From NCBI GenBank assembly GCA_958295485.1, contig OY282354.1:2812042-2876041 (forward strand): DNA of 64,000 nt, given 5' to 3'. A program made the translations under genes and the position numbers. Positions within the stretch are counted from its first letter, which is position 1, and the number at the start of each line of letters is the position of its first letter. Under the pieces are notes generated by a model. The model saw only the letters and a list, made by a program, of their open reading frames with translations, searched no databases and was not told the origin of the DNA. Origin of the DNA: an uncultured Gammaproteobacteria bacterium (GTDB taxonomy: Bacteria > Pseudomonadota > Gammaproteobacteria > Eutrophobiales > Eutrophobiaceae). Below, in pieces: positions 11,815-64,000 of the stretch.

Positions 11815-11856
11815 TGATTTATCACCTTTCCAGGGTAATTAAGTGACAGAAAATTA

Positions 11857-15760: not shown

Positions 15761-15846
15761 ATCCAATGAGCTCGTCGCGGGAATACTGTCATCTCGCAAA
15801 TATCAATGAACTATTCCGGGTTAAATGTTGTTTTTTGTTTTTAATT

Positions 15847-15862
15847 ATGGTAACGTTACCAT
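15847..15862. promoter_or_regulatory. candidate LacI-family operator ATGGTAACGTTACCAT (copy in duplication unit 1)
   Basis: Perfect 16-bp palindrome identical to the site at 11857. Confidence 0.45.
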
Positions 15863-15955
15863 AATGAATGAATATAAAGCGTAAAACAGTTTTCACATTT
15901 ACTAATACCTGCAAACAACCTGCACAAATACATTACAAAAAGGGGGATTTCCACC

Positions 15956-16090
15956 ATGTTAAATAAAAGCAATCCGTTTGGCTGGCTTAATCCGGCGTTT
16001 TACATAGCCCCACTTATCATATTTGCCGCATCTCCGGCAGTTTTTAATGAGCTCGTTACAAGAATACTGTCATCTCGCAAATATAAATGA
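15956..16090 (+). pseudogene. 44-codon orphan ORF: duplicated signal-peptide start of the TonB-dependent receptor (MLNKSNPFGWLNPAFYIAPLIIFAASPAVF) fused to 14 out-of-context codons
   Basis: Created by the tandem duplication. Has its own AAGGGGG Shine-Dalgarno sequence and the same first 30 residues as the receptor at 16238. Confidence 0.5.
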
Positions 16091-16127
16091 ACTATTCCGG
16101 GCTGAATGTTGTTTTTTGTTTTTCATA

Positions 16128-16143
16128 ATGGTAACGTTACCAT
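16128..16143. promoter_or_regulatory. candidate LacI-family operator ATGGTAACGTTACCAT (copy in duplication unit 2, proximal to the receptor gene)
   Basis: Perfect 16-bp palindrome 95 bp upstream of the receptor start codon. Confidence 0.45.
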
Positions 16144-16237
16144 TATGAATGAATATAAAGCGTAAAACAGTTTTCACATTTACTAATTACCTGCAAACAA
16201 CCTACACAAATGCATTACAAAAAGGGGGATTCCCACC

Positions 16238-34646: not shown

Positions 34647-37460
34647 TCAGGAGAACAGGAAGTCTCCCGCGTCCAGGTCGGCAATATCGAAATTCTCAAG
34701 CCGGATCGTTCCCCCGCCATGGGCCACCAAGTCGATTGTAACACCGCCCGAGCCGGACGATACGACGAGTTCATCAAAGCCCGACAGACCAAAGGCGCTG
34801 AGGTCGATCAGGTTATCACCATCGGTAAAGTCGGCAATGACATCGTCGCCATGTCCAAAATCGAATATGAATACGTCGTCACCGCCCCTGCCCAAGAGCC
34901 TGTCATTGCCGCCACCACCGGACAGCCGGTTAGCGCCGTCGTCACCCCCCAGCACGTCCCCGTAGCCAGACCCCAGCACGTTCTCAAAGTTAACAATTAC
35001 ATCGCCTTCCGCATCGCCTCTCTTTACCGTGCCCTCTGACAGGTACACTATTACCCCCCGGTCCGACCCCGCATAGGACACCGTGTCCACGCCCGCGCCG
35101 CCGAACAGCTGGTCTGCGCCCGCGCCCCCTTCCAGCATATCGTCACCGGCCCCACCCAAGAGCCGGTCATTGCCGCCACCACCGGACAGCCGGTTGGCGC
35201 CGTCGTCACCCCCCAGCACGTCCCCGTGAACAGACCCCAGCACGTTCTCAAAGTTAACAATCACATCGCCCTGCGCATCGCCTCTCTTTACCGTGCCCTC
35301 CGACAGGTACACTGTTACCCCCCGGTCCGACCCCGCATAGGACACCGTGTCCACGCCCGCGCCGCCGAACAGCTGGTCTGCGCCCGCACCCCCTTCCAGC
35401 ATATCGTCACCGGCCGCGCCCAAGAGCCTGTCATTGCCGCCACCACCGGACAGCCGGTTGGCGCCGTCGTCACCCCCCAACACGTCCCTGTGAACAGACC
35501 CCAGCACGTTCTCAAAGTTAACAATCACATCGCCCTGCGCATCGCCTCGCTTTACCGTGCCCTCCGACAGGTACACGATTACCCCCAGGTCCGACCCCGC
35601 ATAGGACACCGTGTCCACGCCCGCGCCGCCAAGCAACCGGTCCGCGCCGGCGCCCCCGTCTAACATGTCATCACCATCGCCACCGGACAGCCGATTGGCG
35701 CTGCCATCACCCCCCAGTACATCCTCGTAACCAGATCCCAGCACGTTCTCAACGTCAACAATCACATCACCCTCGGCATGACCACCCTCTCCCGTGCCTG
35801 CCTCGAGATCCACCATCACCGCTCCGTCCGAACTACTATAGGACACCGTGTCTACGCCAGCGCCGCCAAGCAGCCGGTCCGCGCCCGCGCCCCCCTCCAG
35901 CACGTCGTCGCCACCCCTGCCCGAGAGATTGTCATTGCCACCACCACCGGACAGCCGGTTGGCGCCGTCGTCACCTTCCAAAACATCCTCATATCCAGAC
36001 CCCAGCACGTTCTCAACATCCACAATCACATCACCCTCGGCGTGACCACCCTCTCCCGTGCCCGTCTCGAGATCCACCGTCACTGCCTCGTCCGACCCAC
36101 TATAGGACACCGTGTCCATGCCCGCGCCGCCGTCCAGCTGGTCCGCGCCAACGCCCCCCTCCAACACGTCGGCGCCACCCCTGCCCGAGAGATTGTCATT
36201 GCCGCCACCACCGGACAGCCGATTGTCGTCGTCGTCACCCCCCAGCACGTCCCCGTAACCAGACCCCTGCACGTTCTCAACATCCACAATCACATCACCC
36301 TCCGCATGGCCTCCCGCCACTGTGCCCGTCTCAAGGTCCACTGTCACCGCTTCGTCCGACCCGCTATATAACACCGTGTCAGCGCCAAGACCACCCTCCA
36401 ACCGGTCGGCGCCGGCGCCCCCCTCCAACACGTCGTCACCGCCATTACCCCACAACTCATCATTGCCCGCGCCCCCCACCAGACGATTCACAACAGCATT
36501 GCCAATTATCCTGTCGTTGCCAGACCCGGCAATGACATTCTCAATCCAGGTATCACGCGCAATCACCACGTTGCCAACGAAGCCGTAAACATCCGAAATG
36601 CCCTCCGGACGCAAGTCAATCCGCTGGTCAAAGATATCCGTGCGCCCGTCCAGCGTGTCGCTGCCACCCGTGTCGTAGATCGTCAGCGTCACCGGCCAGT
36701 CAAGAGAAAAGTCCTCGGTCACCTGTGCAAAAAGCTGACCGAGGTAACCACCCACGTTGGATTCGTAACCATAGACGGTATCGCCGGCATTGATGTCAGT
36801 GGGCGCCCCATAGAGATTCTGGATCGCGATGATGTCCGCGATCATCGGTGTAACGACGTAAGCATAGCTCGCATTGATGTAGGTGTTCTCGGTCTGGCTG
36901 AAGTAGGACATGACCGTCGCTTGCCAGGAGTCGCCCGGGAATATGTTGTCGGCGCCGTAGGCGCCAGAACTGTTATAGGGCCCCGCGTGGCCCAGGCCGA
37001 GCGCGTGACCGATCTCGTGGATGTAGGTGGAGAAGCTGTAACTGTCAATTGTTGAGCCGTTGGCATCAAGCCAGTTCGTCGAGACATTGACGTGCGAGGA
37101 AATGATTTGGCTGCCCGACCAACTCGTGGATGCAAAGGCGCCTTCTTCTGCATCATCGAAGGTGATGTCGGCATCACCCCTCACGAACCGGAAGTCGATG
37201 TCGGTGACGTTAGTCCAGGCCTCCAGCGCCCAACGGGCAAGCTGCTGGCCTGCGGCGGTCAGACCGGTGATGTCGGCGTTCAGCGTACCGCCGGGCGCCA
37301 CGTCGAAGGCGTGACGGGAACCGCCATCCCACTCCCAATAACCGTCGGCCAGGTAGTCGGCAATTTGATCATAGTTGACTTTGGGGGGTTCGTTTCCCCC
37401 TGATGATTGGGTTTCAGCGCCCGTCACCGCCACGCCGTGATTGCTTTTCGGAATTGTCAT
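34647..37460 (-). CDS. secreted serralysin-family (M10B) zinc metalloprotease with an extended RTX calcium-binding repeat region and a C-terminal T1SS signal
   Basis: HEIGHALGLGH zinc motif plus ATVMSY Met-turn. Dozens of GGxGxDxL nonapeptides sit in about 7 tandem 88-aa modules. The acidic C-terminus is ...DLDAGDFLFS. Confidence 0.9.
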   Translation of the reverse strand: MTIPKSNHGVAVTGAETQSSGGNEPPKVNYDQIADYLADGYWEWDGGSRHAFDVAPGGTLNADITGLTAAGQQLARWALEAWTNVTDIDFRFVRGDADITFDDAEEGAFASTSWSGSQIISSHVNVSTNWLDANGSTIDSYSFSTYIHEIGHALGLGHAGPYNSSGAYGADNIFPGDSWQATVMSYFSQTENTYINASYAYVVTPMIADIIAIQNLYGAPTDINAGDTVYGYESNVGGYLGQLFAQVTEDFSLDWPVTLTIYDTGGSDTLDGRTDIFDQRIDLRPEGISDVYGFVGNVVIARDTWIENVIAGSGNDRIIGNAVVNRLVGGAGNDELWGNGGDDVLEGGAGADRLEGGLGADTVLYSGSDEAVTVDLETGTVAGGHAEGDVIVDVENVQGSGYGDVLGGDDDDNRLSGGGGNDNLSGRGGADVLEGGVGADQLDGGAGMDTVSYSGSDEAVTVDLETGTGEGGHAEGDVIVDVENVLGSGYEDVLEGDDGANRLSGGGGNDNLSGRGGDDVLEGGAGADRLLGGAGVDTVSYSSSDGAVMVDLEAGTGEGGHAEGDVIVDVENVLGSGYEDVLGGDGSANRLSGGDGDDMLDGGAGADRLLGGAGVDTVSYAGSDLGVIVYLSEGTVKRGDAQGDVIVNFENVLGSVHRDVLGGDDGANRLSGGGGNDRLLGAAGDDMLEGGAGADQLFGGAGVDTVSYAGSDRGVTVYLSEGTVKRGDAQGDVIVNFENVLGSVHGDVLGGDDGANRLSGGGGNDRLLGGAGDDMLEGGAGADQLFGGAGVDTVSYAGSDRGVIVYLSEGTVKRGDAEGDVIVNFENVLGSGYGDVLGGDDGANRLSGGGGNDRLLGRGGDDVFIFDFGHGDDVIADFTDGDNLIDLSAFGLSGFDELVVSSGSGGVTIDLVAHGGGTIRLENFDIADLDAGDFLFS
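34850..36420. repeat. about 7 tandem 264-bp near-identical repeats inside the RTX protease gene
   Basis: The nested reverse-frame ORFs MLTLRTCWGL... recur with ends at 34996, 35260 and 35524 (period 264). Protein modules DTVSY.GSD..V.V.L..GT...GDA.GDVIV..ENVLGS...DVLGGDDGANRLSGGGGND repeat almost verbatim. Confidence 0.8.
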
Positions 37461-51034: not shown

Positions 51035-51541
51035 ATGAAAAAACTCGGTGTAATTATAGTCGTGCTGTGCCTGTCAATCACACCGGCGCTCGCTGACTTT
51101 AACGATGGCGTTTATGCTTATTCGATTGGTGAATATCGCAGGGCGTATAACACCATGCGGTCACTGGCTGAAACTTCCGACCATGGCCTGGCTCAATACT
51201 ATTTGGCCATGATGTACTTCAGGGGAAATGGGGCAGAGCAAAGTTACGAAGAGGCGGCGAAATGGTTTCGAAAAGCGGCGGAACAACGAGTCAAACAGGC
51301 CCAATACCAGTTAGGGGAGTTTTATATGAACGGCAGGGGTCTGCCAAGAGATTATGAGTACGCCTATGCCTGGTATCGGGTGGGCGCTGAACACAAGCAT
51401 AAAAAATCAATAGACGCGTTAGATGCGGCAAAATCGAACCTTTCGGATGAGGAACTGAAAGAAGCAGAGAAACTCTCGCGGGAATTTATAAAGAAATTCG
51501 GCCCGTTGCCTGACCAACCTGAAAAAAACATCGGCCCTTAA
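51035..51541 (+). CDS. Sel1-repeat (TPR-like) secreted protein
   Basis: Signal peptide, then repeated A.YYLA.MYF.G.G...EA.KWFRKAAEQ Sel1 modules. Confidence 0.8.
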   Translation: MKKLGVIIVVLCLSITPALADFNDGVYAYSIGEYRRAYNTMRSLAETSDHGLAQYYLAMMYFRGNGAEQSYEEAAKWFRKAAEQRVKQAQYQLGEFYMNGRGLPRDYEYAYAWYRVGAEHKHKKSIDALDAAKSNLSDEELKEAEKLSREFIKKFGPLPDQPEKNIGP

Positions 51542-51855
51542 TCCGGGAGAAACGGAGAGTATCGTGCCGTCAACCGGGAGGATTTGGGGGCTGTTTTTCC
51601 GTTCCGCGCAAAGTCTCTCCAAAACAGCCCCCAAATCCTCTCTCAGCCCGGTGGCTTTACAAGCATGAGCTTGCCTTGGCAAACGCGGCCTTTTCCGGAA
51701 AGTGGGAAATCCGGGAGAAATAGAGAATATCGTGCCGTCAACCGGGGGGATTTGCGGGCTGTTTTTCCGTTCCGCGCAAAGTCTCTCCAAAACAGCCCGC
51801 AAATCCCCCCTCGGCCCGGTCGGCTTTACAAACGTGGTCTTGCCTTGGTCAAACT
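51541..51855. repeat. two tandem about 168-bp repeat units, each containing an 18-bp-stem hairpin (GGATTTGGGGGCTGTTTT...AAAACAGCCCCCAAATCC)
   Basis: Unit 1 is 51541-51708 and unit 2 is 51709 to about 51855. The hairpins are at 51580-51638 and about 51748-51806. Unit 2 carries a compensatory G/C to C/G change in the stem. Confidence 0.8.
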
Positions 51856-53439: not shown

Positions 53440-53580
53440 AGGACAGCGGTTCCCGCTAACAGTGGGTTTGGGGGCTGTTTTGGAGTGACTAACGTCAGGG
53501 ATGAGCATGGGATGGGCTATGGAACGGAAAAGCAGCCACCAAACCCGCTTTCGACGAACAGCGGGAACTCTTGGGGTAAG
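53440..53580. repeat. third, diverged copy of the hairpin element (GGGTTTGGGGGCTGTTTT...AAAAGCAGCCACCAAACCC) within a long imperfect palindrome
   Basis: Seen in sequence. The flanking arms CAGCGGTTCCCGCT / AGCGGGAACTC are also partly complementary. About 150 bp upstream of tRNA-Arg. Confidence 0.6.
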
Positions 53581-53731: not shown

Positions 53732-53808
53732 GCCCTGATAGCTCAGATGGATAGAGCGTCCGCCTCCTAAGCGGAAGGTCAGAGGTTCGAATCCTCTTCA
53801 GGGCGCCA
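53732..53808 (+). tRNA. tRNA-Arg (anticodon CCU)
   Basis: GCCCTGATAGCTCAGATGGATAGAGCGTCCGCCTCCTAAGCGGAAGGTCAGAGGTTCGAATCCTCTTCAGGGCGCCA folds as a cloverleaf with anticodon loop CUCCUAA. Confidence 0.9.
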
Positions 53809-53969
53809 TTTACCACCCCTTTACACTCCCATCCTCTCGTGATAAACTCTTGTAAGTGGTTATTTTGACTGATATTATGTCTCTCATACGCTATTATTCA
53901 TTTCTAATCGTTATCAGACACTCTCATTTTTAGCGTGGGGAAAAACGTGGGAAAAATGAGAGTTGAGCC

Positions 53970-54107
53970 ATGAAAAAAGCCATCACCGCCGCCGAAGCGA
54001 AATCCATCACGAATCCCAGCTCTTATTATGCCGGCGAGACCCTGTACCTGTCTATTGCGCCCGGCGGCTCGAAATCCTGGGTGCAGCGCCTCACTATTTG
54101 TTCTTAA
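53970..54107 (+). pseudogene. N-terminal 45-codon remnant of a P4-type tyrosine integrase (arm-binding DUF4102-like domain)
   Basis: It translates to MKKAITAAEAKSITNPSSYYAGETLYLSIAPGGSKSWVQRLTICS*. The pattern (K..Y.L.DG.GLYL.V.P.GSK.W..R) is the start of tRNA-associated integrases. It lies 160 bp 3' of tRNA-Arg in an AT-rich stretch. Confidence 0.55.
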
Positions 54108-54203
54108 TGTATTTAATATCATCTCCTTGCTTTTATTCCCACGATTTCCCCAACAAGATTTGGATTGATAAAGACGAGTGATTCCAGGGCCTGTACTGAT
54201 ATC

Positions 54204-54983
54204 TTATTCGGTGAACCGTTGCCGCAAATCTTCCAGCATAGCGGCTGAAATTGAAAATCTTTCCTCCAGATAGCGCTCAATTGTTCCGTGATTGTCTTCC
54301 ATATAGTTCAGGGCGCCCAATATATATTCCGCTTTCACGCCCAGCATGGCAAGGACAGAGGCCCTGTCCATCCCGGTATCCTCCCAGCCGTACCTGGCCG
54401 AAGCCTGGGCAACCTGCTGTTCAGGCACAAAACATTTGCCGGAAAGCAGGTAATCTTCAACAACAATTTCCCTGGGTACGCCCAGGGCCGATAGCAGAAG
54501 AGTTGAGCCAAAACCCGTGCGGTCCTTGCCGGCCGAGCAATGAATGAGCATCGCCCCATGCTCAAGCTCCGACAGGTACCGGAACATGCCGCTGAATTCA
54601 TCAACATGGCTTGAAGCAAACTCAACATATATACCACGCATCATGTCGTCTATACACTGTATGGAGATTCTCTTTCCCGGTCCTGGTTTCACATAGGATT
54701 CCATTTGTCCCGGATCGATCGCCAGCTGCATAACCTGAGCGTTATCCGGCAATCGGCTGGGGTCTTTTCGTCTTTCATTTTGCCCCCGGAAATCACAGCA
54801 ATAGACAATATCAAGACCGGAAAGATATTCGATGTCCCTGTCTGTCAGGTCACTCAATTGGCCTGACCGGAATAACCGGTTCCACTTGACCTGCCGCCCG
54901 TCGGTGGTTGGATAACCCCCAAGGTCGCGAAAGTTGACCCCGCCCTCCAGCGGTAATAATCGTTCCGGCATTCGGCTATTCAA
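54204..54983 (-). CDS. protein-tyrosine/dual-specificity phosphatase-like protein (Y_phosphatase3-type)
   Basis: HCSAGKDRTG CX5R P-loop. 259 aa. Confidence 0.75.
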   Translation of the reverse strand: MNSRMPERLLPLEGGVNFRDLGGYPTTDGRQVKWNRLFRSGQLSDLTDRDIEYLSGLDIVYCCDFRGQNERRKDPSRLPDNAQVMQLAIDPGQMESYVKPGPGKRISIQCIDDMMRGIYVEFASSHVDEFSGMFRYLSELEHGAMLIHCSAGKDRTGFGSTLLLSALGVPREIVVEDYLLSGKCFVPEQQVAQASARYGWEDTGMDRASVLAMLGVKAEYILGALNYMEDNHGTIERYLEERFSISAAMLEDLRQRFTE

Positions 54984-55258
54984 CAGATTGCGACCACAAT
55001 TTCCCTGACCACAGATTTCATATCAGGCTCCTGAAATTTAAAACGGCAATCATGGTCTTGCCCCGGGAATATTATCTGAATGTTGGTTTAAAGTGTTTCG
55101 TTGTCGATTCCTTCGGCGCCACCTCCGAGACAACCGCCAGGCGCAGGGGCAGTGGCAATTGCCTGAGACCGTTAATCTGCAGGCGCACTCCTTCAGCGAG
55201 TGTGTAGTATGAATGTTATCCATATTCGTGTCCATGCCACTGGTCATTTGCTCTATTT

Positions 55259-55272
55259 CGTAAACAGGTTTA
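55259..55272. promoter_or_regulatory. candidate TetR operator, palindrome GTAAAC-AG-GTTTAC
   Basis: 14-bp inverted repeat 33 bp upstream of the TetR start. Confidence 0.3.
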
Positions 55273-55304
55273 CACTTAACGAACATTCAGTCAGAAGACT
55301 CTTC

Positions 55305-55886
55305 ATGAACACAACCGCTTCACATTTGATCTCGGTCGCTGCAAAACAGTTTGCCGAAAAGGGTTATTCAGGCGCTTCCATGCGCAGTATTGCCAACGCC
55401 GCCGGGACGACTCAGGCAGCGATATACCACCATTTTTCGAACAAGAACGCTCTCTACCTGGCCGTGCTGGCCAGACATTTTGATGCTAAATCCAGTGACA
55501 TGGCTGATGATCTGGCCCAGGTCAGTGATCCGGAAAAGCGTTTGAAAATCCTGGTTCACCGTTTGCTTGAACTGGTGGAGGAAGATGAACAGTTTCGCCA
55601 GCTCTATTTTCGCGAACTGCTGGAGACTGACGAAGAGCGTTTGCGCGTACTGGCAGACAACGTGTTTGGCGAATTGGCTGTCACCCTGACCGAACTTCTG
55701 AAGGAGCTGGCGCCGCGAATGGACTCTCACCTTATGCTGCTCTCACTCGGCGGCCTGGTTTGCCACCACCTTGAGGCGCGCAAGCTCAGTCCCTTCCTGC
55801 CGGGAGGCAAACGTAAACACCAACAGCTGGATGTGCTGGCTGAACACATTACGGAACTCCTCCTTCACGGAGTACAGCGGTCATGA
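55305..55886 (+). CDS. TetR-family transcriptional regulator
   Basis: LISVAAKQFAEKGYSGASMRSIANAAGTTQAAIYHHF HTH. Start taken at the internal Met of ORF 55200..55886. The stop overlaps the start of the MMPL gene. Confidence 0.85.
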   Translation: MNTTASHLISVAAKQFAEKGYSGASMRSIANAAGTTQAAIYHHFSNKNALYLAVLARHFDAKSSDMADDLAQVSDPEKRLKILVHRLLELVEEDEQFRQLYFRELLETDEERLRVLADNVFGELAVTLTELLKELAPRMDSHLMLLSLGGLVCHHLEARKLSPFLPGGKRKHQQLDVLAEHITELLLHGVQRS

Positions 55887-58324
55887 GGCAGGGAAAAAGC
55901 GACTATCTGCACAAGGCCGATGAGATGTTCGGTCACCTGGGCCTTTGGATGTACGGCCACAAACTCATCGTCCTGCTGTGCGCACTGGGATTACTGAGCA
56001 CCGGTCTTTACTTCGCCGGCAAGACTCGTGCCGACAACGGTCTGGATAGTTTTTTTGATGCGACAGACACTGCCTATAACGCCTATGTAATCTACCAGGA
56101 TGAGTTCGGTTCAGACGAGGTGGCTTATATCCTTTACACGGTTCCCAACAGTCCCTACGGCCCCTTTGACCTGGACGCCATGCAGCGCATAGCGCAACTG
56201 ACCGAGGCCCTGGAATACGAGGTGCCTTTCGTAAGGGACGTAACCAGCCTGAGTAACGTGGAGTTCATCACTGCCGATGGCGATTTCCTTGAGATCCACG
56301 AGTTGGCGCTGGATATGCCGGAGGACCAGGCCGGCCTGCTGGAGCGCGGCCTGGCGATGATGCAAAAGCCCAGTTACCGTGGCGCCATCGTCAACAACGA
56401 GGCCACCCATGGCGCTATCATCCTGGAAATGACTATTTCCATCAACGATCCGCTGGACGAAATAAGACTGGACCCGGAAGGTGGCGACGGGCTGCCCAAC
56501 CTGTATCCGCAGGCGGCCAAACACAAGATCGACGAGATCCTGTCCCGGCCGGAATACACCGGTATTGACTTTTACCTGGGCGGCGATGTCCAGATGAGCA
56601 CGGCCTATAACGAGACCATCACACGTGACACGGCACGGCAAACCCTGTTGACACTGGCCCTGGTCAGTATCATTGCCATGATATGCTTCCGCATGCAGCT
56701 TCTGGGGCTGGCCGGGCCGCTTTCAGTTGTGATTCTCGCCCTGATCCTGACCATAGGCTTCATGGGCCTTGTCGGCTACGAGATGGGGATTCTGTTCCTC
56801 ATTGTGCCCACCTTCCTGACCGCCATCGGTGTTGCGCAGTCGGTACACCTGATCACCGAATTCAACCTGATGCGCGCCCGGGGCCTGGACCGGCGAGAGG
56901 CAGTAAAACAGGCCATGGAACACGTGGCCATGCCCTGCCTCCTGGCGGCATTTACCACGGCGGCAGGGTTCCTGGTCATGGCGACCTCTAAACTGCGCCC
57001 CTTGTCGGAAATAGCCGTGTACCAGAGCGTTGGTGTGATGCTTGCCTTCCTTGCCAGCATCACCGTCATGGTCTGTTACATGTCCATGGGCAAAGACAGA
57101 CCACACAAATCACTCGATCCGTCGGAGAGGAAATCCGGCCTGTTGTATTATTTCCTCCACCGCGTTGCAGCATTGAACCTTAAGCGTCCCTTCGCCATCA
57201 TGGCGGTGTTCGGTGTAATTCTGACAGGTTCCATGATCGGGATCGGCAAACTGCACGTAGGCTTCAACTTCCTGGAGGAATTCAAGCCACATACCCGGTT
57301 CCGGCTGGATACCGACTACATACAAAACGTGATGGGCGGCATGCTTAACGTGGTTTTCATCTACGACAGCGGTAAGGCCGATGGCATCAAGAGCAGCGAG
57401 ATGCTTGCCCACCTTGAAGGGCTCCAGGCCTATGCTGAGCGGTCGACCATTGTCGAAAAGAGCTACTCTGTGGTCGATATTCTCAAGGATATAAACCAGA
57501 GTTTTCACAGTGATGACCCGGCCTACTACCGACTGCCGGAAAGCGGCGAGTTAATCGCACAGTACCTGTTGTTGTATGAGATCTCCGGCGGCGAAGAACT
57601 CAGTGATTTCGTAAGTGGCGACTACCGCCGGACTGCCCTGGAACTGCGAGTGGATATTACCGATTCGAGACATATCAAGGCCTTGATCGACGACCTGGAG
57701 CGCTATATGGCGGCGCACCCTGTATCCGGCGCAGAGATCCGGACCACAGGCATGGGTTTATTATGGGTCAGGTTAGCCAGTTATATCGCCGAGAGCCAGA
57801 TGTGGTGCTACGGGCTTGCCTTCATCATAATCGCCCTGGTAATGTGCCTGGCTTTCCGTTCAGTGAAAGTTGGTCTGCTTGTCATGATTCCCAACCTGTT
57901 TCCTGCTGTTCTGGTTCTGGGCTTTATGGGCTTGAACGGCATGCAACTGGACTATTTCAAGCTGATGCTGGCGACGGTAGCCATCGGTATCGCGGTTGAC
58001 GACACGGTGCACATTTCCACCCGCATACGAAAAGAGTTCCACCGTTCCGGCAACTACGAGGAAGCCATTCGGACCAGCCTGTTGAGCACGGGCCGGGCTC
58101 TTGTCATTACCACTATCATCCTTTCACTGTCCTTCCTTGTATACACGGTTTCCGATATGGCAATACTGGCAGATTTCGGGATACTGCTATCTGCCACCAT
58201 GGTTTCGGCATTGGTCGCCGACCTGTTCCTGTTACCTTGCCTGGTGCTGGTGCTGAAGCCCTTTGGGTCGGAATACGAACCGGCCACTGTCAGTGATCCA
58301 GCGCCCGCAGCCCACACATTATGA
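55883..58324 (+). CDS. RND-superfamily exporter of the MMPL/HpnN-like type
   Basis: 813 aa with two 6-TM bundles, each followed by a sterol-sensing-domain-like region, and two large periplasmic loops. Confidence 0.8.
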   Translation: MRQGKSDYLHKADEMFGHLGLWMYGHKLIVLLCALGLLSTGLYFAGKTRADNGLDSFFDATDTAYNAYVIYQDEFGSDEVAYILYTVPNSPYGPFDLDAMQRIAQLTEALEYEVPFVRDVTSLSNVEFITADGDFLEIHELALDMPEDQAGLLERGLAMMQKPSYRGAIVNNEATHGAIILEMTISINDPLDEIRLDPEGGDGLPNLYPQAAKHKIDEILSRPEYTGIDFYLGGDVQMSTAYNETITRDTARQTLLTLALVSIIAMICFRMQLLGLAGPLSVVILALILTIGFMGLVGYEMGILFLIVPTFLTAIGVAQSVHLITEFNLMRARGLDRREAVKQAMEHVAMPCLLAAFTTAAGFLVMATSKLRPLSEIAVYQSVGVMLAFLASITVMVCYMSMGKDRPHKSLDPSERKSGLLYYFLHRVAALNLKRPFAIMAVFGVILTGSMIGIGKLHVGFNFLEEFKPHTRFRLDTDYIQNVMGGMLNVVFIYDSGKADGIKSSEMLAHLEGLQAYAERSTIVEKSYSVVDILKDINQSFHSDDPAYYRLPESGELIAQYLLLYEISGGEELSDFVSGDYRRTALELRVDITDSRHIKALIDDLERYMAAHPVSGAEIRTTGMGLLWVRLASYIAESQMWCYGLAFIIIALVMCLAFRSVKVGLLVMIPNLFPAVLVLGFMGLNGMQLDYFKLMLATVAIGIAVDDTVHISTRIRKEFHRSGNYEEAIRTSLLSTGRALVITTIILSLSFLVYTVSDMAILADFGILLSATMVSALVADLFLLPCLVLVLKPFGSEYEPATVSDPAPAAHTL

Positions 58325-58333
58325 GAGATCGTC

Positions 58334-59131
58334 ATGTTTGCAAAGAAATACATGTATTTGATTACCCTGGCCATGAGCTCCCCGGCGCTTGCGCAGGCGG
58401 TCCATGATCGGGACGCCGTGGAAAAAGGCATCGCCATCGCCGCCGAAGCAGATCGCCGCGACAGCGGTTACGTGGACAGCGAGGAGTCCTTCACCATGGT
58501 GCTGCGGGACAGCAAGGGGCGCGAGCGTTTTCGTACCCTGCGCACGAAAACCCTGGAACGCACTGATGACGGCGACTGGAGCCTGACCATCTTCGACGAA
58601 CCGGCGGACGTTAAAGGCACCGCCATGCTCACCTACAGCCACGGCCTGGAGCCTGACGACCAGTGGCTTTACCTGCCGGCCTTAAAACGCGTGAAACGTA
58701 TTTCCTCCAAAAATCGCTCCGGGCCGTTCATGGGCAGCGAGTTTGCCTTTGAGGATTTGAGCGACTTCGAGTTGGAAAAATACAGCTATCGATACCTGCG
58801 TGATGAGCCGTGTGGCGAGCACAGCTGTTTTGTCTCCGAGTGGGTGCCCGCCTATGAGCACTCCGGTTACACCCGGATCGAAGTCTGGCACGACCGGGAG
58901 GAATACCGTGAGCAAAAAATAGAGTTCTACGATAAAGTCGGCAAGCACCTGAAAACACTGGTGCTTAACGACTACTCACTTTACCGGGAACGCTTCTGGC
59001 GCCCCCTGAAGATGGAGATGACCAACCACAAGACAGGCAAGGCCACCCTGCTCCACTTCAACAATATTGAGTTGGGAGCAGGTCTGACCGAGCGTGAGTT
59101 CGACCAGAACTCCCTCAGGCGTGCCAAGTAA
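58334..59131 (+). CDS. LolA-like outer-membrane lipoprotein-sorting-fold protein (DUF1329-type)
   Basis: Signal peptide. The size and the blocks ...LYLPALKRVKRISS...GSEFAFEDL... are recalled from DUF1329 proteins that partner MMPL exporters. Confidence 0.6.
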   Translation: MFAKKYMYLITLAMSSPALAQAVHDRDAVEKGIAIAAEADRRDSGYVDSEESFTMVLRDSKGRERFRTLRTKTLERTDDGDWSLTIFDEPADVKGTAMLTYSHGLEPDDQWLYLPALKRVKRISSKNRSGPFMGSEFAFEDLSDFELEKYSYRYLRDEPCGEHSCFVSEWVPAYEHSGYTRIEVWHDREEYREQKIEFYDKVGKHLKTLVLNDYSLYRERFWRPLKMEMTNHKTGKATLLHFNNIELGAGLTEREFDQNSLRRAK

Positions 59132-60350
59132 CCGTTTCGGTACCGGCGCCAGGCTATCCGGCGCTATCCTGGCCGGTATCCTGGCTACACCCGCCGCCAT
59201 TGCAATGGATCCGGAGAAAATGCAGTGGTCCGGCCACGTGGGCGGGGAGTACCGGTATTTCACGGATGCCGGCGCCGGCGGGGCACGCTACCAGCACAAT
59301 TTTTCCCTTGTCGCCGAACCGGAGCTTTACTATCCCGTCCGCGCCTCCGGCGACAGCCTGCGTCTCACGGCGTTCCTGCGCCTGGACGAGCACGATGATG
59401 AGCGCTCCCATGGTGACATACGCGAAATGAAGTGGCACAAGGTGGCGGACCGCTGGGAATTGACCCTGGGAGTCGACCGGATATTCTGGGGTGTCACCGA
59501 GACCATTCACCTGGTAAATATCATAAACCAGCAGGACTTTGTGGAGAACCCGGATGGCGAGGACCTGCTCGGGCAACCCATGATACGCCTCGAGCTTGTG
59601 CGGGACTGGGGAACACTGGGTTTATTTGTCCTGCCCTACTTCCGTGAACGTTCCTATCCCGGCACAGAAGGACGCCCGGGATCCGCCCTCGTGGTGAACA
59701 CCGACAATCCCGTTTATGAGTCCGGCACGGAACAATGGCACACGGACTTTGCCCTGCGCTGGAGCCACTATATCGGCAACTGGGACCTGGGCGCTTCCTA
59801 TTTCTACGGCACCAGCCGCGAGCCGCGCTTCGACCCGATGTTCTCAAGTATAACGAAGCAAGGCGTAACAACCCTGCGGCCTGTCTACGATATCATTCAC
59901 CAGGCGGGTGTTGACGTGCAGGGCACCTTCGATGCGTGGTTGTGGAAGCTGGAGGCCATCTACCGGGATGGGCAGGACGATGCGTTTTTCGCCGGCGCCG
60001 TCGGACTGGAATACACCTTCTTCGATATCTCCGGCCACGGTATCGATATCGGCCTGGTCACCGAGTATCTCTACGATGAGCGGACATTTTTCATCAGTAC
60101 CGATAATGATCTCAGCCTGGGCATGAGACTGACATTGAACGATATCGATTCGACCGAATTTCTGGCCGCCGTGGTGCAGGACCTGGACAATCAGTCACGC
60201 TATTTCTTTGTGGAGGCCAGCCGGCGTATCGGGGATTCCTTCAAACTCTCCGTGGAAGCCCGCGGCATTAACAACGTCGCTGAGGGTGACCCCCTGCAAT
60301 TCTATGACGGCGACAATTTTATCCAGGTGGAGCTGGCGTACTACTTCTGA
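59094..60350 (+). CDS. outer-membrane beta-barrel protein (DUF1302-like) partnering the MMPL exporter
   Basis: Signal peptide (AILAGILATPAAIA) and alternating-hydrophobic beta-strand pattern. The C-terminal ...IQVELAYYF ends in an aromatic residue. Confidence 0.5.
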   Translation: MSSTRTPSGVPSNRFGTGARLSGAILAGILATPAAIAMDPEKMQWSGHVGGEYRYFTDAGAGGARYQHNFSLVAEPELYYPVRASGDSLRLTAFLRLDEHDDERSHGDIREMKWHKVADRWELTLGVDRIFWGVTETIHLVNIINQQDFVENPDGEDLLGQPMIRLELVRDWGTLGLFVLPYFRERSYPGTEGRPGSALVVNTDNPVYESGTEQWHTDFALRWSHYIGNWDLGASYFYGTSREPRFDPMFSSITKQGVTTLRPVYDIIHQAGVDVQGTFDAWLWKLEAIYRDGQDDAFFAGAVGLEYTFFDISGHGIDIGLVTEYLYDERTFFISTDNDLSLGMRLTLNDIDSTEFLAAVVQDLDNQSRYFFVEASRRIGDSFKLSVEARGINNVAEGDPLQFYDGDNFIQVELAYYF

Positions 60351-60351
60351 A

Positions 60352-60564
60352 ATTATGCCTCCGGTTGGCTCTCAGTGTTCTTACAATGTCGTCAACGCCG
60401 AAATTTCTCTAAGTAGTGCCGACGAAAGGTGGAAATTTAAAATTTGGGCAAAAAATCTGTTTGAAGAAGACTATTCCATATTTACCAACACAGGTCAGTT
60501 TGGTGATCTGGTGGCATTTGCACCACCACGCGTTGCGGGTGCCAGAGTAGAATTTAATTTCTAA
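60352..60564 (+). pseudogene. C-terminal about 70-aa remnant of a TonB-dependent receptor
   Basis: It translates to MPPVGSQCSYNVVNAEISLSSADERWKFKIWAKNLFEEDYSIFTNTGQFGDLVAFAPPRVAGARVEFNF*. This is the canonical last beta-strands and terminal Phe of TBDRs, with no upstream barrel or plug. Confidence 0.55.
60354..60376. repeat. 23-bp direct repeat, left copy (TATGCCTCCGGTTGGCTCTCAGT)
   Basis: 22/23 identical to 63080-63102. Confidence 0.7.
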
Positions 60565-60584
60565 TATTCTTACGACATCTTCAT

Positions 60585-61679
60585 CTATTCATCCATTTTT
60601 AATATAGGTTTGATTGTTTTACCGGAATGGGTGTCGGCAACCGCTTCGTTGATCTGCTCCAACGAATAAAAACCCGCGAGCTTGTCCATAGGGAATGAAC
60701 CGTCAAGATACATTTCTATCAATTGCGGAATAATTGCAACTGGATCGCAATCACCATTTACCACACCACGAATGACTTTACCGCTTATCAGTGGTAGCAC
60801 ATTTAGTGTAACCTGCGGTTCCTTCGAGGCACCAAGCAAGGTCAATGTTCCACGTGTTTTTAAAGCGTCAGCCGCAGTAGAGATAAGCGCCGGTACACCG
60901 CTGGTATCAACACCTTGATCAATCCCGCCCAGTTCTGCCAGTTCGCCGGCAAGATCCTGGTCCGCAGTATTAATAGAATCACTGGCTCCAAGCTCACGTG
61001 CCAAAGCAAGACGGCTCTCAACTCGGTCCACTGCAATAATTTTGCCTGCATTCATGGCTTTCGCAGCCATCAAGGCCGCCATACCGACGGCACCGGCGCC
61101 AAATACAGCAAGTGTCGTGTCCGGCCCTGGTCTTAATACATTCATCACTGTACCGGCACCTGTTAAATAACCACAGCCTAGTGGCCCCATGAGCTCCAGT
61201 GGTACGTCCTTACGGATCTTGATGGCATTCCGCGCCTGCGCTAGAGAGTAAGTTGCAAAGGAAGACTGGGAAAAAAAACCACCGCCAATGGCTTCTCCAC
61301 TTTCGGCATGCAATGTGGGTGAACCATCCAGACGACGCCCCATGAAATTTAAAGGCATGTACTGCTCACAATAGGCTGGGTGTGAATCGCTACAGGGAGC
61401 ACAGGCCCCGCAGGTATTGAATGTAAGAACGACGTGATCACCCGGCTCATAGCCGCTGACATTGGCCCCCACTTTTTCGACTACACCTGCACCTTCATGT
61501 CCAAGTACAAAGGGAAGCGGCAAAGGCATGATCTGGTCGACGATTGACAAATCCGTATGACAAATTCCAGTGGCGACGATCTGCACCAATAATTCATCGT
61601 CATTTGGGTCTGCCAGATCTATTCCTTCTACACTAAATTGACCTCCTGCCTCCCGTGCAACAGCAGCTTTTATTTTCAT
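60585..61679 (-). CDS. zinc-dependent alcohol dehydrogenase (aryl/benzyl-alcohol dehydrogenase-like MDR)
   Basis: GICHTDLS and GHEGAGVVEKVG zinc-site motifs. Structural zinc cysteines CGACAPC. GAGAVG Rossmann motif. Confidence 0.85.
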   Translation of the reverse strand: MKIKAAVAREAGGQFSVEGIDLADPNDDELLVQIVATGICHTDLSIVDQIMPLPLPFVLGHEGAGVVEKVGANVSGYEPGDHVVLTFNTCGACAPCSDSHPAYCEQYMPLNFMGRRLDGSPTLHAESGEAIGGGFFSQSSFATYSLAQARNAIKIRKDVPLELMGPLGCGYLTGAGTVMNVLRPGPDTTLAVFGAGAVGMAALMAAKAMNAGKIIAVDRVESRLALARELGASDSINTADQDLAGELAELGGIDQGVDTSGVPALISTAADALKTRGTLTLLGASKEPQVTLNVLPLISGKVIRGVVNGDCDPVAIIPQLIEMYLDGSFPMDKLAGFYSLEQINEAVADTHSGKTIKPILKMDE

Positions 61680-61705
61680 ATTACTTCCCCCTGAGTCCGT
61701 CTTGC

Positions 61706-62953
61706 TTAATTACGTTCGCTTATTATCATTGGTAGTGTTTCAAGACCCCGGAAGGCCATGGGCGGTGAAAAATCCAACTCATCATTTACCAAACTAAATT
61801 CAAAACGCTCGATAAAGGCAGGAAAAAATTCACTCAATACCATCTTTGCAAGGCGAAGACCAATACAGTGATGCATGCCCGGTGCAAATACCAGGTTTTG
61901 GCCCTGATCCCGTTCAAAATTAAATTCATGAGGCTCAGCAAACACAGACGGATCCTGGTTTGCTGCACTTTGAAAAAGCAACACAAATTGTCCTTTCTTT
62001 ATTATATTTCCATCCCACTCAAAATCTTCCGCGACAACCCGAGACATGAAGGTCGACATCTGTGCGCGCCGTTGAATCTCCATTATCGCATCTATGTCAA
62101 TATCGTCGGATTGTCGTAACTTGTCGATAGATTCAGGCTGACGAGCCAGTTCAGCCACACCCAATGCCATGGTATTCACAGTCGTGTCATGACCGGCAAT
62201 CAACACAATATGGCAAACGCCAAGCATCTCTTCCTCTGTTAACTTATCTCCCGCATCAACCGCCAATACCAATTCGGAAATAAAATCGCCGGTGGGATTT
62301 TTGCGTTTTTCCTCAAACTTGGGTTTGAATAATTCGTTCAACTCATTGATGACGCCGTCAACCTTGAATAATTGCTCAAGCGGTACATTGATGTTACCGA
62401 TGGTATTCAAGTCGATTGACCAGCGTTGCATCTCGTTAATCAATGTATCGTCAAAGTCACAGACCTTCAGGATCATGCGAGCCGGAATGATGCGTGCCAC
62501 GTTTTCAACAAATTCAACCGGGCCATCTATTTCTGCAACCGCATCCAGCGCCTCCTTAATATAGCGCTGCACATCAGGACGAATCGCTTCTACCACTGCG
62601 CGCCCAAATGCCCTTTGAATCAAGCGACGTATTCTCTGGTGCTCGTCACCGTCCATGTTCAGCAGCCAGGTCTTCGGCGTCTGCATCACAGCAGGAATCT
62701 GCGTCCTCTCTTCATCGCTCAGGTGTGCGGTGGCAAAAAACGGCAACCTCTCATTGGATAGTGGGAGTTTTCCCGAATAACCCATGAGAACTTCGCAATG
62801 ACCCGTCACCATCCAGGCCTGGTTGATCTCACTCCAGTATATCGGGCTGGTCTTTCGTAAATCGTCCAGGCGTTCTGTCAGGGAACTACCCAGGCTCTGT
62901 ATGTCCAGTGGGAAATCCAGCTCGCTGGCAACACTTTGACTAGGACCGGTCAT
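61706..62953 (-). CDS. cytochrome P450 monooxygenase
   Basis: I-helix AGHDTT, EXXR, and heme-ligand loop FAPGMHHCIGLRLA. 415 aa. Confidence 0.9.
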   Translation of the reverse strand: MTGPSQSVASELDFPLDIQSLGSSLTERLDDLRKTSPIYWSEINQAWMVTGHCEVLMGYSGKLPLSNERLPFFATAHLSDEERTQIPAVMQTPKTWLLNMDGDEHQRIRRLIQRAFGRAVVEAIRPDVQRYIKEALDAVAEIDGPVEFVENVARIIPARMILKVCDFDDTLINEMQRWSIDLNTIGNINVPLEQLFKVDGVINELNELFKPKFEEKRKNPTGDFISELVLAVDAGDKLTEEEMLGVCHIVLIAGHDTTVNTMALGVAELARQPESIDKLRQSDDIDIDAIMEIQRRAQMSTFMSRVVAEDFEWDGNIIKKGQFVLLFQSAANQDPSVFAEPHEFNFERDQGQNLVFAPGMHHCIGLRLAKMVLSEFFPAFIERFEFSLVNDELDFSPPMAFRGLETLPMIISERN

Positions 62954-63079
62954 GTCTAAAACTCCTTGCGGGATGTTTAGGAACGAATAATTTTAACCCA
63001 TATTATAACAAACGCTATACAAAAAAGTTATCACCAGCCCGGATGTTGTGCAAGTAACTTATAAGGCGCAGTAATTGGG

Positions 63080-63102
63080 TATGCCTCCGGTTGGCTCCCA
63101 GT
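63080..63102. repeat. 23-bp direct repeat, right copy (TATGCCTCCGGTTGGCTCCCAGT)
   Basis: Matches 60354-60376. Here it is followed by only 8 further sense codons before a stop. Confidence 0.7.
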
Positions 63103-63194
63103 ACGTTCGTTGAGTTTAACGGGCAGGCGTTCAAGGCCGCGCAACGACATGGCAGGAGAGAATACAAAGTCCAGACTATCCCGTATCCGGTCAG

Positions 63195-63965
63195 TCAAAG
63201 CTGCCAACCCCCATCGACGGCCAGGTTCACACCCGATATGTACCTGCCTTTTTCTGATGCCAGGAAGACTACCGCATTGGCGATGTCTTCAGGTGTACCC
63301 AGGTTACCCAGGGGGACTTGCGCGGTAATCGCCTTGATGGCCTTCTCGTCCATCTGGCCGTCCATACCTCTTGCCAGTTTTCCTCCTGCCAACCAGCCCG
63401 AACGGATGCTGTTTGCCCGGATGCCATAGCGACCATTTTCCCTGGCCACCACCTCCAGCAGGTTCTCAATGGCTGCCTTGGGCGCGCTGGAGAGCACACT
63501 CTTCGGCAGGTGTCGTGTCGCCTGGGTGGTGGTCACTGCGGTAATACTGCCGCCGCCGGTATCCTTCAATACGGGAAGCGCAGCCTGGATCAGGTTGAAA
63601 CAGGCATGGGTGTCCTGCGTAAAGATGTTTTTCCAGGCTTCCAGACTTGTGGAACCGACAAAATCTATGGGTATTGCCGGACCTGCTGCATACACAACGC
63701 TATGGACGGCGACGTACTTTTCCTTGACCTGCTGCATAAATGAATGGGTGGCAGCCTCATCATGCAAAGCCAGTTGATAGTAGTCCACTGCAATGTCTGA
63801 AGATATACAGGATTGCATTACCTGTCGCGCCCCCTGCTCGTTCAGGTGATAGGTGAACGCCACCGGCGATCCCGACCTCGCAAACGCCTCTACGATTGCC
63901 GCGCCGATCCCCCCGCTACCGCCGGCCACAACCGCAACCCCCTCTTTAAACTCCTTTACACCCAT
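63195..63965 (-). CDS. SDR-family oxidoreductase
   Basis: VAVVAGGSGGIGAAIV Rossmann motif and YAAGPA... catalytic region. 256 aa. Confidence 0.8.
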   Translation of the reverse strand: MGVKEFKEGVAVVAGGSGGIGAAIVEAFARSGSPVAFTYHLNEQGARQVMQSCISSDIAVDYYQLALHDEAATHSFMQQVKEKYVAVHSVVYAAGPAIPIDFVGSTSLEAWKNIFTQDTHACFNLIQAALPVLKDTGGGSITAVTTTQATRHLPKSVLSSAPKAAIENLLEVVARENGRYGIRANSIRSGWLAGGKLARGMDGQMDEKAIKAITAQVPLGNLGTPEDIANAVVFLASEKGRYISGVNLAVDGGWQL

Positions 63966-64000
63966 TATTCATTCAGCGCCAGATACGGCGATCAATCAGC

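Follow-up and report, generated by a model that had tools for sequence, protein, structure and literature searches.

A 23-bp direct repeat at the end of an uptake operon marks an old rearrangement scar around alcohol dehydrogenase and cytochrome P450 genes in an uncultured gammaproteobacterium

A 64,000-nt stretch of DNA from an uncultured Gammaproteobacteria bacterium (assembly GCA_958295485.1, contig OY282354.1; the whole stretch is called the window here) carries a rearrangement scar at the 3' end of an uptake operon, where a pair of 23-bp direct repeats brackets the remnant of a TonB-dependent receptor gene, an alcohol dehydrogenase (ADH) gene and a cytochrome P450 gene (P450a). The repeat, TATGCCTCCGGTTGGCTC(T/C)CAGT on the plus strand, lies at 60354-60376 (left copy, 23L) and 63080-63102 (right copy, 23R), and the copies are identical at 22 of 23 positions, the sole difference being T/C at position 19. 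An earlier sequence-only reading had placed the two copies at 60354 and 63080 in the same orientation, and both were recovered there. Other matches with up to three mismatches are absent from the window (0 found and 0 expected from 100 shuffles), and within the 64 kb the pair is the sole near-perfect dispersed repeat of such length. The scar is real and old. As a kind of thing, the locus is ordinary, a plastic island that has received catabolic genes of foreign origin; only a recurrent breakpoint after ...CTCAGT goes beyond an ordinary rearrangement scar. We tentatively favour, with somewhat less than even confidence, a displacement-type event in which one-sided homologous and one-sided illegitimate recombination would have merged two arrangements at the end of the operon module. 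The features on which the argument draws are as follows.

53732-54098, plus strand: tRNA-Arg(CCT) and a 43-codon P4-type integrase stub, placing the locus in a decayed tRNA-linked island
55200-55886, plus strand: TetR (Pfam)
55234-60353, plus strand: conserved operon module of the TetR, MMPL, LolA-like and 418-aa genes, plus AAT (Pfam; homology block with the related locus L008)
55234-55244, plus strand: left-edge motif ATGCCACTGGT, which matches the beginning of the 23-mer at 9/11 positions and stands at the first base of the homology block with L008
55883-58324, plus strand: MMPL/RND-like transporter (Pfam)
58334-59131, plus strand: LolA-like protein (Pfam)
59094-60350, plus strand: 418-aa outer-membrane-type protein without a Pfam hit, last gene of the operon
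60318-60377, plus strand: 60-nt segment (33 nt of the end of the 418-aa gene, AAT, the 23-mer and G), 100% identical to L032 10788-10729
60354-60376, plus strand: 23L, beginning 3 nt past the TGA of the 418-aa gene
60377-60564, plus strand: 3' remnant of a TonB-dependent receptor gene, about 62 codons and stop, GC content 0.41, with an in-frame ATG at 60355 inside 23L
60585-61679, minus strand: intact Zn-dependent benzyl/aryl-alcohol dehydrogenase (Pfam ADH_N and ADH_zinc_N; PDB 1f8f, E=5.5e-100)
61706-62953, minus strand: intact cytochrome P450, P450a (Pfam p450; PDB matches)
62954-63079, no strand assigned: AT-rich region upstream of P450a (GC 0.38), right end of the block
63080-63102, plus strand: 23R
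63103-63207, minus strand: remnant of an older P450 gene (P450'), about 35 codons from its C-terminal end (BLASTP E=5e-7 against the P450a C-terminus), in frame through 23R
63195-63965, minus strand: short-chain dehydrogenase (SDR), first gene of the right-hand cluster

No fewer than 8 independent assemblies, complete long-read chromosomes among them, have both copies of the repeat, with identities of 98.0-99.9%, and short-read contigs from other samples show the same two-copy arrangement. The long-read contig L001 (3.77 Mb), for instance, is 99.93% identical to the window from 54094 to 64000 and carries both copies, and the scar is present in every assembly of the clade that spans the locus. 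Among 185,579 species-representative genomes, the 21-nt core of the repeat matched only three gammaproteobacterial metagenome-assembled chromosomes (3.8-4.5 Mb), in each of which it is confined to this locus; the L004 chromosome has one exact core match only, owing to a substitution in its 23L. Copies were absent from the viral contigs scanned. The presence of the arrangement in independent long-read assemblies, circular and complete chromosomes included, indicates that neither a misassembly nor a genome-wide repeat is involved, the two circumstances that would have undone the sequence-only reading. An assembly artefact or a common genomic repeat thus has next to no chance of explaining the pair, although one related short contig, L017 (described below), may be a chimera across a 60-nt repeat. 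The 23R of L004, L016 and L024 reads TCTCAGT, as the usual 23L does; 23L and 23R are identical over 23/23 positions in L016 and L024, whereas the L004 23L has the substitution G11A. Judging from L016 and L024, the pair was probably perfect originally. The 23-mer alone has neither a palindrome nor dyad symmetry, and scans with Rfam, promoter and terminator models gave nothing relevant and no Rfam match for the 23-mer. Similarity of the flanks beyond the 23 bp, sought as a sign of a longer original duplication, did not rise above the shuffled null, and polymorphism counts in 9 strains revealed no special conservation of the repeats and remnants.

The right copy abuts the remains of an older P450 gene. 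The minus strand to the right of 23R encodes ...LDFVFSPAMSLRGLERLPVKLNER, which is homologous to the P450a end ...LDFSPPMAFRGLETLPMIISERN; therefore, the DNA right of 23R represents the last ~35 codons of an older P450, P450', whose body is gone up to the SDR stop codon at 63195. The P450' frame crosses 23R as T-G-S-Q-P-E-A and continues for 16 codons into the region upstream of P450a. When 60377-63102, that is the block and one repeat, was removed in silico, P450' ended in ...LPVKLNERTESQPEA-TAA (NERTESQPEA), the restored TAA being the reverse-strand reading of a TTA across the repeat's left border, at a distance of 2 nt from the operon TGA. The reconstructed site is, as read from the sequence, a tidy convergent gene pair. 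On the plus strand, the eight unrelated codons that the sequence-only reading had placed after the right copy shrink to three (MPPVGSQ-YVR-stop). The cluster beyond consists of the SDR, the receptor gene TBDR829, an acyl-CoA dehydrogenase gene and a second P450 gene (P450b), and it extends past the end of the window.

The left copy is, at least in its 5' half, native to the operon. In L008, whose 418-aa ortholog is 92% identical, DNA homology to the window covers exactly 55234-60365 at 90% identity, spans the stop codon of the 418-aa gene and nucleotides 1-12 of the repeat (TATGTATCCGGT) and then ends, with an aldehyde dehydrogenase gene next. L008 has no receptor fragment; since it nevertheless shares repeat nucleotides 1-12, the repeat derives in its 5' half from the native operon flank and not from the receptor. 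In 418-aa orthologs at 69-75% identity, unrelated DNA follows straight after the stop codon. Beside orthologs at 92%, 75%, 70% and 69% identity the 23-mer was absent, save for the 12 nt in L008, and the downstream DNA was different in each. This variable DNA past the operon indicates that the operon end is a boundary between conserved and variable sequence in many lineages. Relatives were also searched for an empty site, as the sequence-only reading had proposed, but the 418-aa orthologs differ downstream and all contigs with an identical SDR already carry the insert. The left-edge motif ATGCCACTGGT is possibly an old degenerate copy of the start of the 23-mer, as its resemblance suggests, and the pattern ATGCCNCNGGT has 6 matches against 0.76 expected; the motif was absent from L002/L024-type strains and from other module boundaries.

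Between the copies, the composition of the DNA changes. The operon has a GC content of 0.558 and the right flank of 0.56, in contrast to 0.473 for the 2,703-bp block, a difference that speaks for an insertion. At its left end, which falls inside a truncated gene, the ORF (open reading frame) starting from ATG 60355 has 69 codons, ends in RVEFNF and stops at 60562-60564. Its translation matches TonB-dependent receptors over their final ~63 residues (TBDR829, E=1e-5), a 762-aa receptor over residues 700-762, and sphingomonad receptors. The sequence-only reading had likewise taken it for a receptor C-terminus that ends in RVEFNF and lacks some 700 residues, which holds. The ORF gave no Pfam hit, and the plug and full beta-barrel domains are absent; by its sequence it is a receptor remnant and not a receptor. 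The 69-aa remnant is annotated as a protein in other assemblies. No N-terminal receptor half was found in the window, a word-indexed search for the full-length parent returned only the same 69-aa remnant, and tblastn of the remnant against plasmids gave only matches below 40% identity, the best in Sphingobium and Novosphingobium.

The benzyl-alcohol-type dehydrogenase and the P450 on the opposite strand, also named by the sequence-only reading, were borne out by Pfam and PDB matches. Relatives of the ADH outside the clade reach at most 75% identity, the nearest named ones being from Hirschia, Novosphingobium and Sphingobium and several being alphaproteobacterial; those at 75% and 72% stand in other contexts. 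Since the nearest named relatives of both the ADH and the receptor remnant are from sphingomonads or other alphaproteobacteria, the source of the block appears foreign and is possibly alphaproteobacterial. A plasmid relative, sought as a donor arrangement, was not found. P450a is 33% identical to P450b, and the similarity of the P450a upstream region to an operator-like repeat before P450b and TBDR829 was not significant. Neither a recombinase or transposase gene within the block nor inverted repeats at its ends were detected. In a separate observation, the closest ADH relative outside the clade (75%; L010 1595-6381) is located beside a pair of genes for a LolA-like and a 406-aa outer-membrane protein, an aldehyde dehydrogenase and a Rieske dioxygenase, a context that suggests a recurrent functional link of this uptake system with genes for aromatic or alcohol oxidation.

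A third copy of the repeat occurs beside the gene for a 2-oxoacid dehydrogenase E2 component. It was seen in L017, a 1.4-kb metagenome contig in which the operon end and the 23-mer are followed by an E2 gene ending ...VPPTESQPEA-TAA. This E2 is AceF-like, but its catalytic domain stops ~6 conserved positions short, which marks the gene as 3'-truncated; for the same reason, the idea that the 23-mer is native to E2 was rejected. Long contigs also carry this 250-aa E2, among them a chromosome that bears the two-copy locus as well: in L032 the E2 locus lies ~60 kb from the two-copy locus and has the repeat in the same orientation. There, the 60-nt copy (L032 10788-10729) has the 3'-truncated E2 gene on one side and, on the other, a toxin gene of Gp49/HigB type that is truncated at its 5' end (Pfam positions 48-89 of 90). 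The three GTDB chromosomes with the 21-nt core are without this third copy, which is therefore strain-specific. L017 was at first a candidate for an independent third arrangement and has been downgraded, because the 60-nt repeat of L032 can explain it, either as a recombinant between 60-nt repeats or as an assembler chimera. In addition, L017 has a frameshifting deletion of ~300 nt in the 418-aa gene (L017 60-80), at whose junction both TGGAAG hexamers are retained, which adds to the doubt on this contig. Only in the E2 context is the 23-mer included in a hairpin (TGCCTCC-N15-GGAGGCA), in which the joint falls where loop and stem meet.

Further variation is seen near the repeat. To the left of the 23-mer there are two single-nucleotide polymorphisms (SNPs), A/G at window position 60322 (32 nt away) and A/C at 60351 (3 nt away). 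Strains show every one of their four combinations, indicating frequent recombination in the population; the 60-nt copy of L032 has the window-type alleles and not those of the operon copy in its own genome. A fusion with an ABC ATPase (P0046) was set aside as uninformative, being on a low-coverage contig that ends 6 nt past the stop codon.

The three contexts share one edge. The operon flank ends at ...CTCAGT whether it is followed by the receptor fragment (GTTCTTAC...), by P450' (ACGTTCG...) or by E2 (GGGAGGCA...), while the inward extent of the flank copy differs, being native at the operon, 23 nt at 23R and 60 nt beside E2.

In the displacement account that we favour, the ancestor of the clade would have had the module convergent with P450', the 23-mer serving as the last 7 codons of P450' and the operon flank providing its TAA. 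We infer that a second arrangement existed, in which foreign DNA of lower GC content (~62 receptor codons, the ADH gene and P450a with its upstream region) stood beside the same module end, and likewise the direction, order and recombination mechanism of the events. The left crossover would have been homologous, within the shared operon, and the right end of the incoming DNA would have been joined illegitimately 23 nt before the resident module end. The resident downstream DNA, with P450' and the SDR cluster, would thereby have moved 2.7 kb to the right, keeping a 23-nt stub of the module end, and most of P450' would later have been deleted up to the SDR stop codon. The 60-nt copy beside E2 may be the same kind of stub, from another arrangement. 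In this account the shared right end is the module end, and each stub needs only one arbitrary illegitimate joint. Such homology-facilitated illegitimate recombination (HFIR) combines a conserved anchor with an illegitimate joint. The former is seen in the operon module, which is 90-99.9% identical among relatives and directly followed by variable DNA. The latter is seen in the junctions of 23L with the receptor fragment and of the P450a upstream region with 23R, where the flanks are unrelated and the receptor and P450' genes are truncated. The truncated start of the block, the lack of a recombinase and of terminal inverted repeats, and the mere 23 bp in common with the flanks are hallmarks of illegitimate joining. 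Further illegitimate junctions are on record in sister strains at this locus, in agreement with the account.

A parallel is offered by orphan arrays in type VI secretion system (T6SS) and Rhs loci, which have been attributed to displacement by HFIR, with orphaned 3' pieces downstream of an anchor (PMC5361080; HFIR work of de Vries and Wackernagel, 2002 and Prudhomme et al., 2002, in the form in which PMC5361080 cites it). The displacement arrays of T6SS, Rhs and contact-dependent inhibition (CDI) loci resemble the present locus in that a conserved left anchor is followed by variable DNA, incoming DNA displaces the resident, decapitated 3' remnants and direct repeats of anchor pieces are left behind, and no dedicated recombinase takes part. 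In contrast to those arrays, the cargo here is catabolic (ADH and P450) rather than toxin and immunity genes, the anchor piece is a 23-nt non-coding flank instead of a coding motif, the displaced remnant is on the opposite strand, a single displacement step is visible and a donor arrangement was not observed.

Several points weigh against the displacement account. The donor and the undisplaced recipient alleles were not found in the collections scanned, and no genome there has the module and 23-mer followed by a full-length P450', or by the receptor fragment without the right copy. An exhaustive search of 1.84 billion representatives for a full-length P450' relative returned only one spurious adhesin-like match, and ...TESQPEA may be the natural tail of P450' or a fusion. 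The account also needs the module end to be adjacent to three different truncated genes (receptor, P450' and E2) at one nucleotide. This in turn requires that the module have a defined end, and no enzyme that could mobilise it was seen. Finally, the 3' half of the 23-mer (the VGSQ codons) may be receptor-derived; the alignments to receptors begin at residues 4-7, close to the junction. If a full-length receptor had GTTGGCTCTCAGT ~70 codons from its end, the 23-mer would be a hybrid junction and the order of events would change.

Other explanations were weighed on the same evidence. The sequence-only reading had regarded the locus as the footprint of a rearrangement, an oxidative-enzyme block with a 3' receptor remnant, and this part stands. 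Its further proposal, that a receptor gene bearing the 23-mer was duplicated and then truncated by an ADH/P450 cassette so that both copies are receptor sequence, is very improbable. It is true that 23L is in frame with the remnant and supplies its ATG, and that a few receptor alignments reach residues 1-4 of the 69-aa ORF. However, there is a single receptor fragment: 23R has no receptor sequence around it and is followed by antisense P450', with whose opposite-strand frame it is continuous, and no N-terminal half stands in the window. Repeat nucleotides 1-12 are operon flank in L008, and the 23-mer stands beside E2 in L032 together with 33 nt of the 418-aa gene. Less improbable, yet still unlikely, is the simple insertion of a random 2.7-kb foreign fragment between operon and P450' through two illegitimate joints staggered by 23 bp, either by double illegitimate recombination or by end-joining at a staggered break, with duplication of the 23 bp and no operon-bearing donor. 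The clean reconstructed site, the GC step at both repeats, the start of the block in a truncated gene without recombinase or inverted repeats, and the commonness of illegitimate junctions at this locus all agree with it. Nevertheless, it gives no account of the independent 60-nt copy of L032 that ends at the same nucleotide, and the illegitimate junctions of sister strains retain one microhomology copy rather than both. To our knowledge, target duplications in transposition are far shorter than 23 bp, which also counts against it.

Site-specific or one-ended recombination is a further explanation, to which we likewise give a low probability. Here the 23-mer, or its ATGCCNCNGGT start, would be an att-like core acted upon in trans or a nick site of rolling-circle or relaxase type, with joining at a fixed bond after ...CTCAGT and with the 23- and 60-nt copies as site copies or abortive products. 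It would fit the meeting of three different truncated genes at the same nucleotide, the bounding of the module by ATGCCACTGGT and ATGCCTCCGGT, where the L008 block exactly begins and stops, the joint at the loop/stem boundary of the hairpin beside E2, and the position of the direct repeats at the 3' ends of convergent genes; integrative elements may target gene ends. On the other hand, no recombinase, relaxase, transposase or Rep gene lies in or next to the modules, and the sole integrase is the 43-codon stub by a tRNA unrelated to the repeat. The repeat has neither dyad symmetry nor attC-like structure nor an Rfam match. Neither an empty site (TGAAAT-23-mer-ACGTTCG) nor a circle junction (AATTGGG-23-mer-GTTCTTAC) turned up in the assembled genomes, metagenomes and viral contigs scanned. 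Genomes contain 2-3 copies and viral contigs none, the hairpin exists in one of the three contexts, and the left-edge motif, a weak match at 9/11, is missing from several strains. A more specific idea, which we hold to be doubtful and somewhat less probable still, is that the sequence running up to ...CTCAGT past the operon could be where a mobile but non-autonomous module has its fixed end, or a nick or recombination site used in trans. An unrecognised one-ended joining process would then set the uptake operon beside different catabolic genes, fuse its last 23 nt to their 3' ends (the ...T(E/G)SQPEA tail) and leave 23- and 60-nt stubs. If the shared breakpoint does reflect a specific enzyme or DNA structure and not shared descent of the module end, this would be a sign that non-autonomous operon modules can be moved in a manner not yet described.

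Known mobile systems share some traits with the locus. Integrative islands of the SGI1 type use the final ~18-25 bp of a gene as their target and have direct repeats of this core at both ends, SGI1 itself residing at the 3' end of trmE. The locus is similar in having direct repeats of ~20 bp around the insert (22/23 to 23/23 identical) and a site that overlaps the last codons and stop of P450' and E2. It differs from such integrative islands in the lack of integrase and excisionase genes, in a 2.7-kb block that begins in a truncated gene, in the absence of an empty site or circle and in that the element was found in no other context. Within the block there are only the receptor remnant, ADH and P450, the nearest integrase being the 43-codon stub 6 kb away, and scans of genomes, metagenomes and viral contigs for attB and attP showed only the 23L, 23R and E2 contexts. 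As in integron arrays, tandem modules are separated by short sequence copies and the repeat stands at the 3' end of minus-strand genes, but here genes are truncated, modules hold several genes and IntI is missing: no integrase was found near the array among the ORFs and called genes of the window, L001, L024 and L026. The repeat does not have attC architecture (R''/L''/L'/R', a GTTRRRY core/RYYYAAC pair, an imperfect palindrome).

A target duplication by a transposon would also leave a direct repeat of the target on each side of an insert, yet the 23 bp are far above the usual length, transposase and terminal inverted repeats are missing and the insert ends lie in genes. Repetitive extragenic palindromic (REP) sequences and bacterial interspersed mosaic elements differ as well, since the non-palindromic 23-mer is present twice per complete chromosome and three times in one strain. 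SPDIR (short-patch double illegitimate recombination), as described in bioRxiv 10.1101/2023.11.22.568220, yields microindels in otherwise collinear DNA. The likeness to SPDIR, and to templated filler at junctions, lies in short ectopic copies, here of 23 and 60 nt, that come from elsewhere in the genome and stand between unrelated sequences. In contrast, the patches here stand at kilobase-scale junctions and share one end, which SPDIR in that description does not predict.

If the displacement account holds, the scar would show directly in which order a mosaic catabolic island was put together: the operon, for uptake of hydrophobic substrates, would have gained foreign ADH and P450 genes ahead of an older P450, later discarded. 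The locus would thus illustrate, on a small scale and cleanly, the accretion and mutual replacement of oxidative modules in marine or environmental Gammaproteobacteria.

The surroundings of the scar are structurally very plastic among close strains. The tRNA-Arg(CCT) gene at the left was considered as the origin of the 23-mer through a tRNA-derived att site, and was rejected because its sequence is unrelated to the repeat; within the available sequence, no tRNA-derived attR was found. Exactly at the integrase stub, the window and L001 go from 94-97% to 99.9% identity, and in L001 an IS3-type insertion sequence (IS) element lies in the stub (L001 3720-5002). In OZ220696, P450b contains an IS21-type element and the LolA-like gene an IS4-type transposase (L025 2400-4719 and 15456-17267). 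One strain lacks exactly 2,400 nt (L024 at ~7142 versus L026 4742-7141), a deletion that joins codons 1-18 of P450b to the final 18 of the acyl-CoA dehydrogenase gene with 1-nt microhomology. In the short-read scaffold L003 (1-110), window position 54898 is joined to 59189 via a 9-10-nt microhomology, CCYGCCGCC, with the loss of 4.3 kb; the junction links a phosphatase gene to codon ~30 of the 418-aa gene, so TetR, MMPL and LolA-like genes are gone, and it could be either chimeric or a genuine deletion variant. In several strains, the tyrosine phosphatase gene is separated from TetR by a DUF3604 gene for 660 aa (L002 2896-4915), in place of which the window has 285 nt (54985-55269) with only a 45-nt trace.

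Some other repeats were noted. Beyond the window, a conserved repeat of ~90 nt with CCTTATAGCAT(A/C)TGCTA(G/C)TATAGCAA lies upstream of P450b and of the 829-aa receptor gene (L026 4550-4639 and 7275-7361); it is probably a shared operator and is not shared with the P450a upstream region. A 281-nt tandem duplication at 15765-16328 includes the perfect palindrome TAATGGTAACGTTACCAT, which is also intergenic at 11855 and 13078 and looks like an operator. A ~113-nt repeat at 51540-51820 and 53455-53490, with perfect hairpins of 20-22 bp (GGATTTGGGGGCTGTTTT / AAAACAGCCCCCAAATCC) and a related arm near the tRNA gene, resembles a REP element or a miniature inverted-repeat transposable element. On the minus strand at 34647-37460, a gene encodes a 936-aa serralysin-like RTX metalloprotease with six tandem repeats of ~264 nt (34901-36493); the gene has a GC content of up to 0.65 and a strongly negative GC skew.

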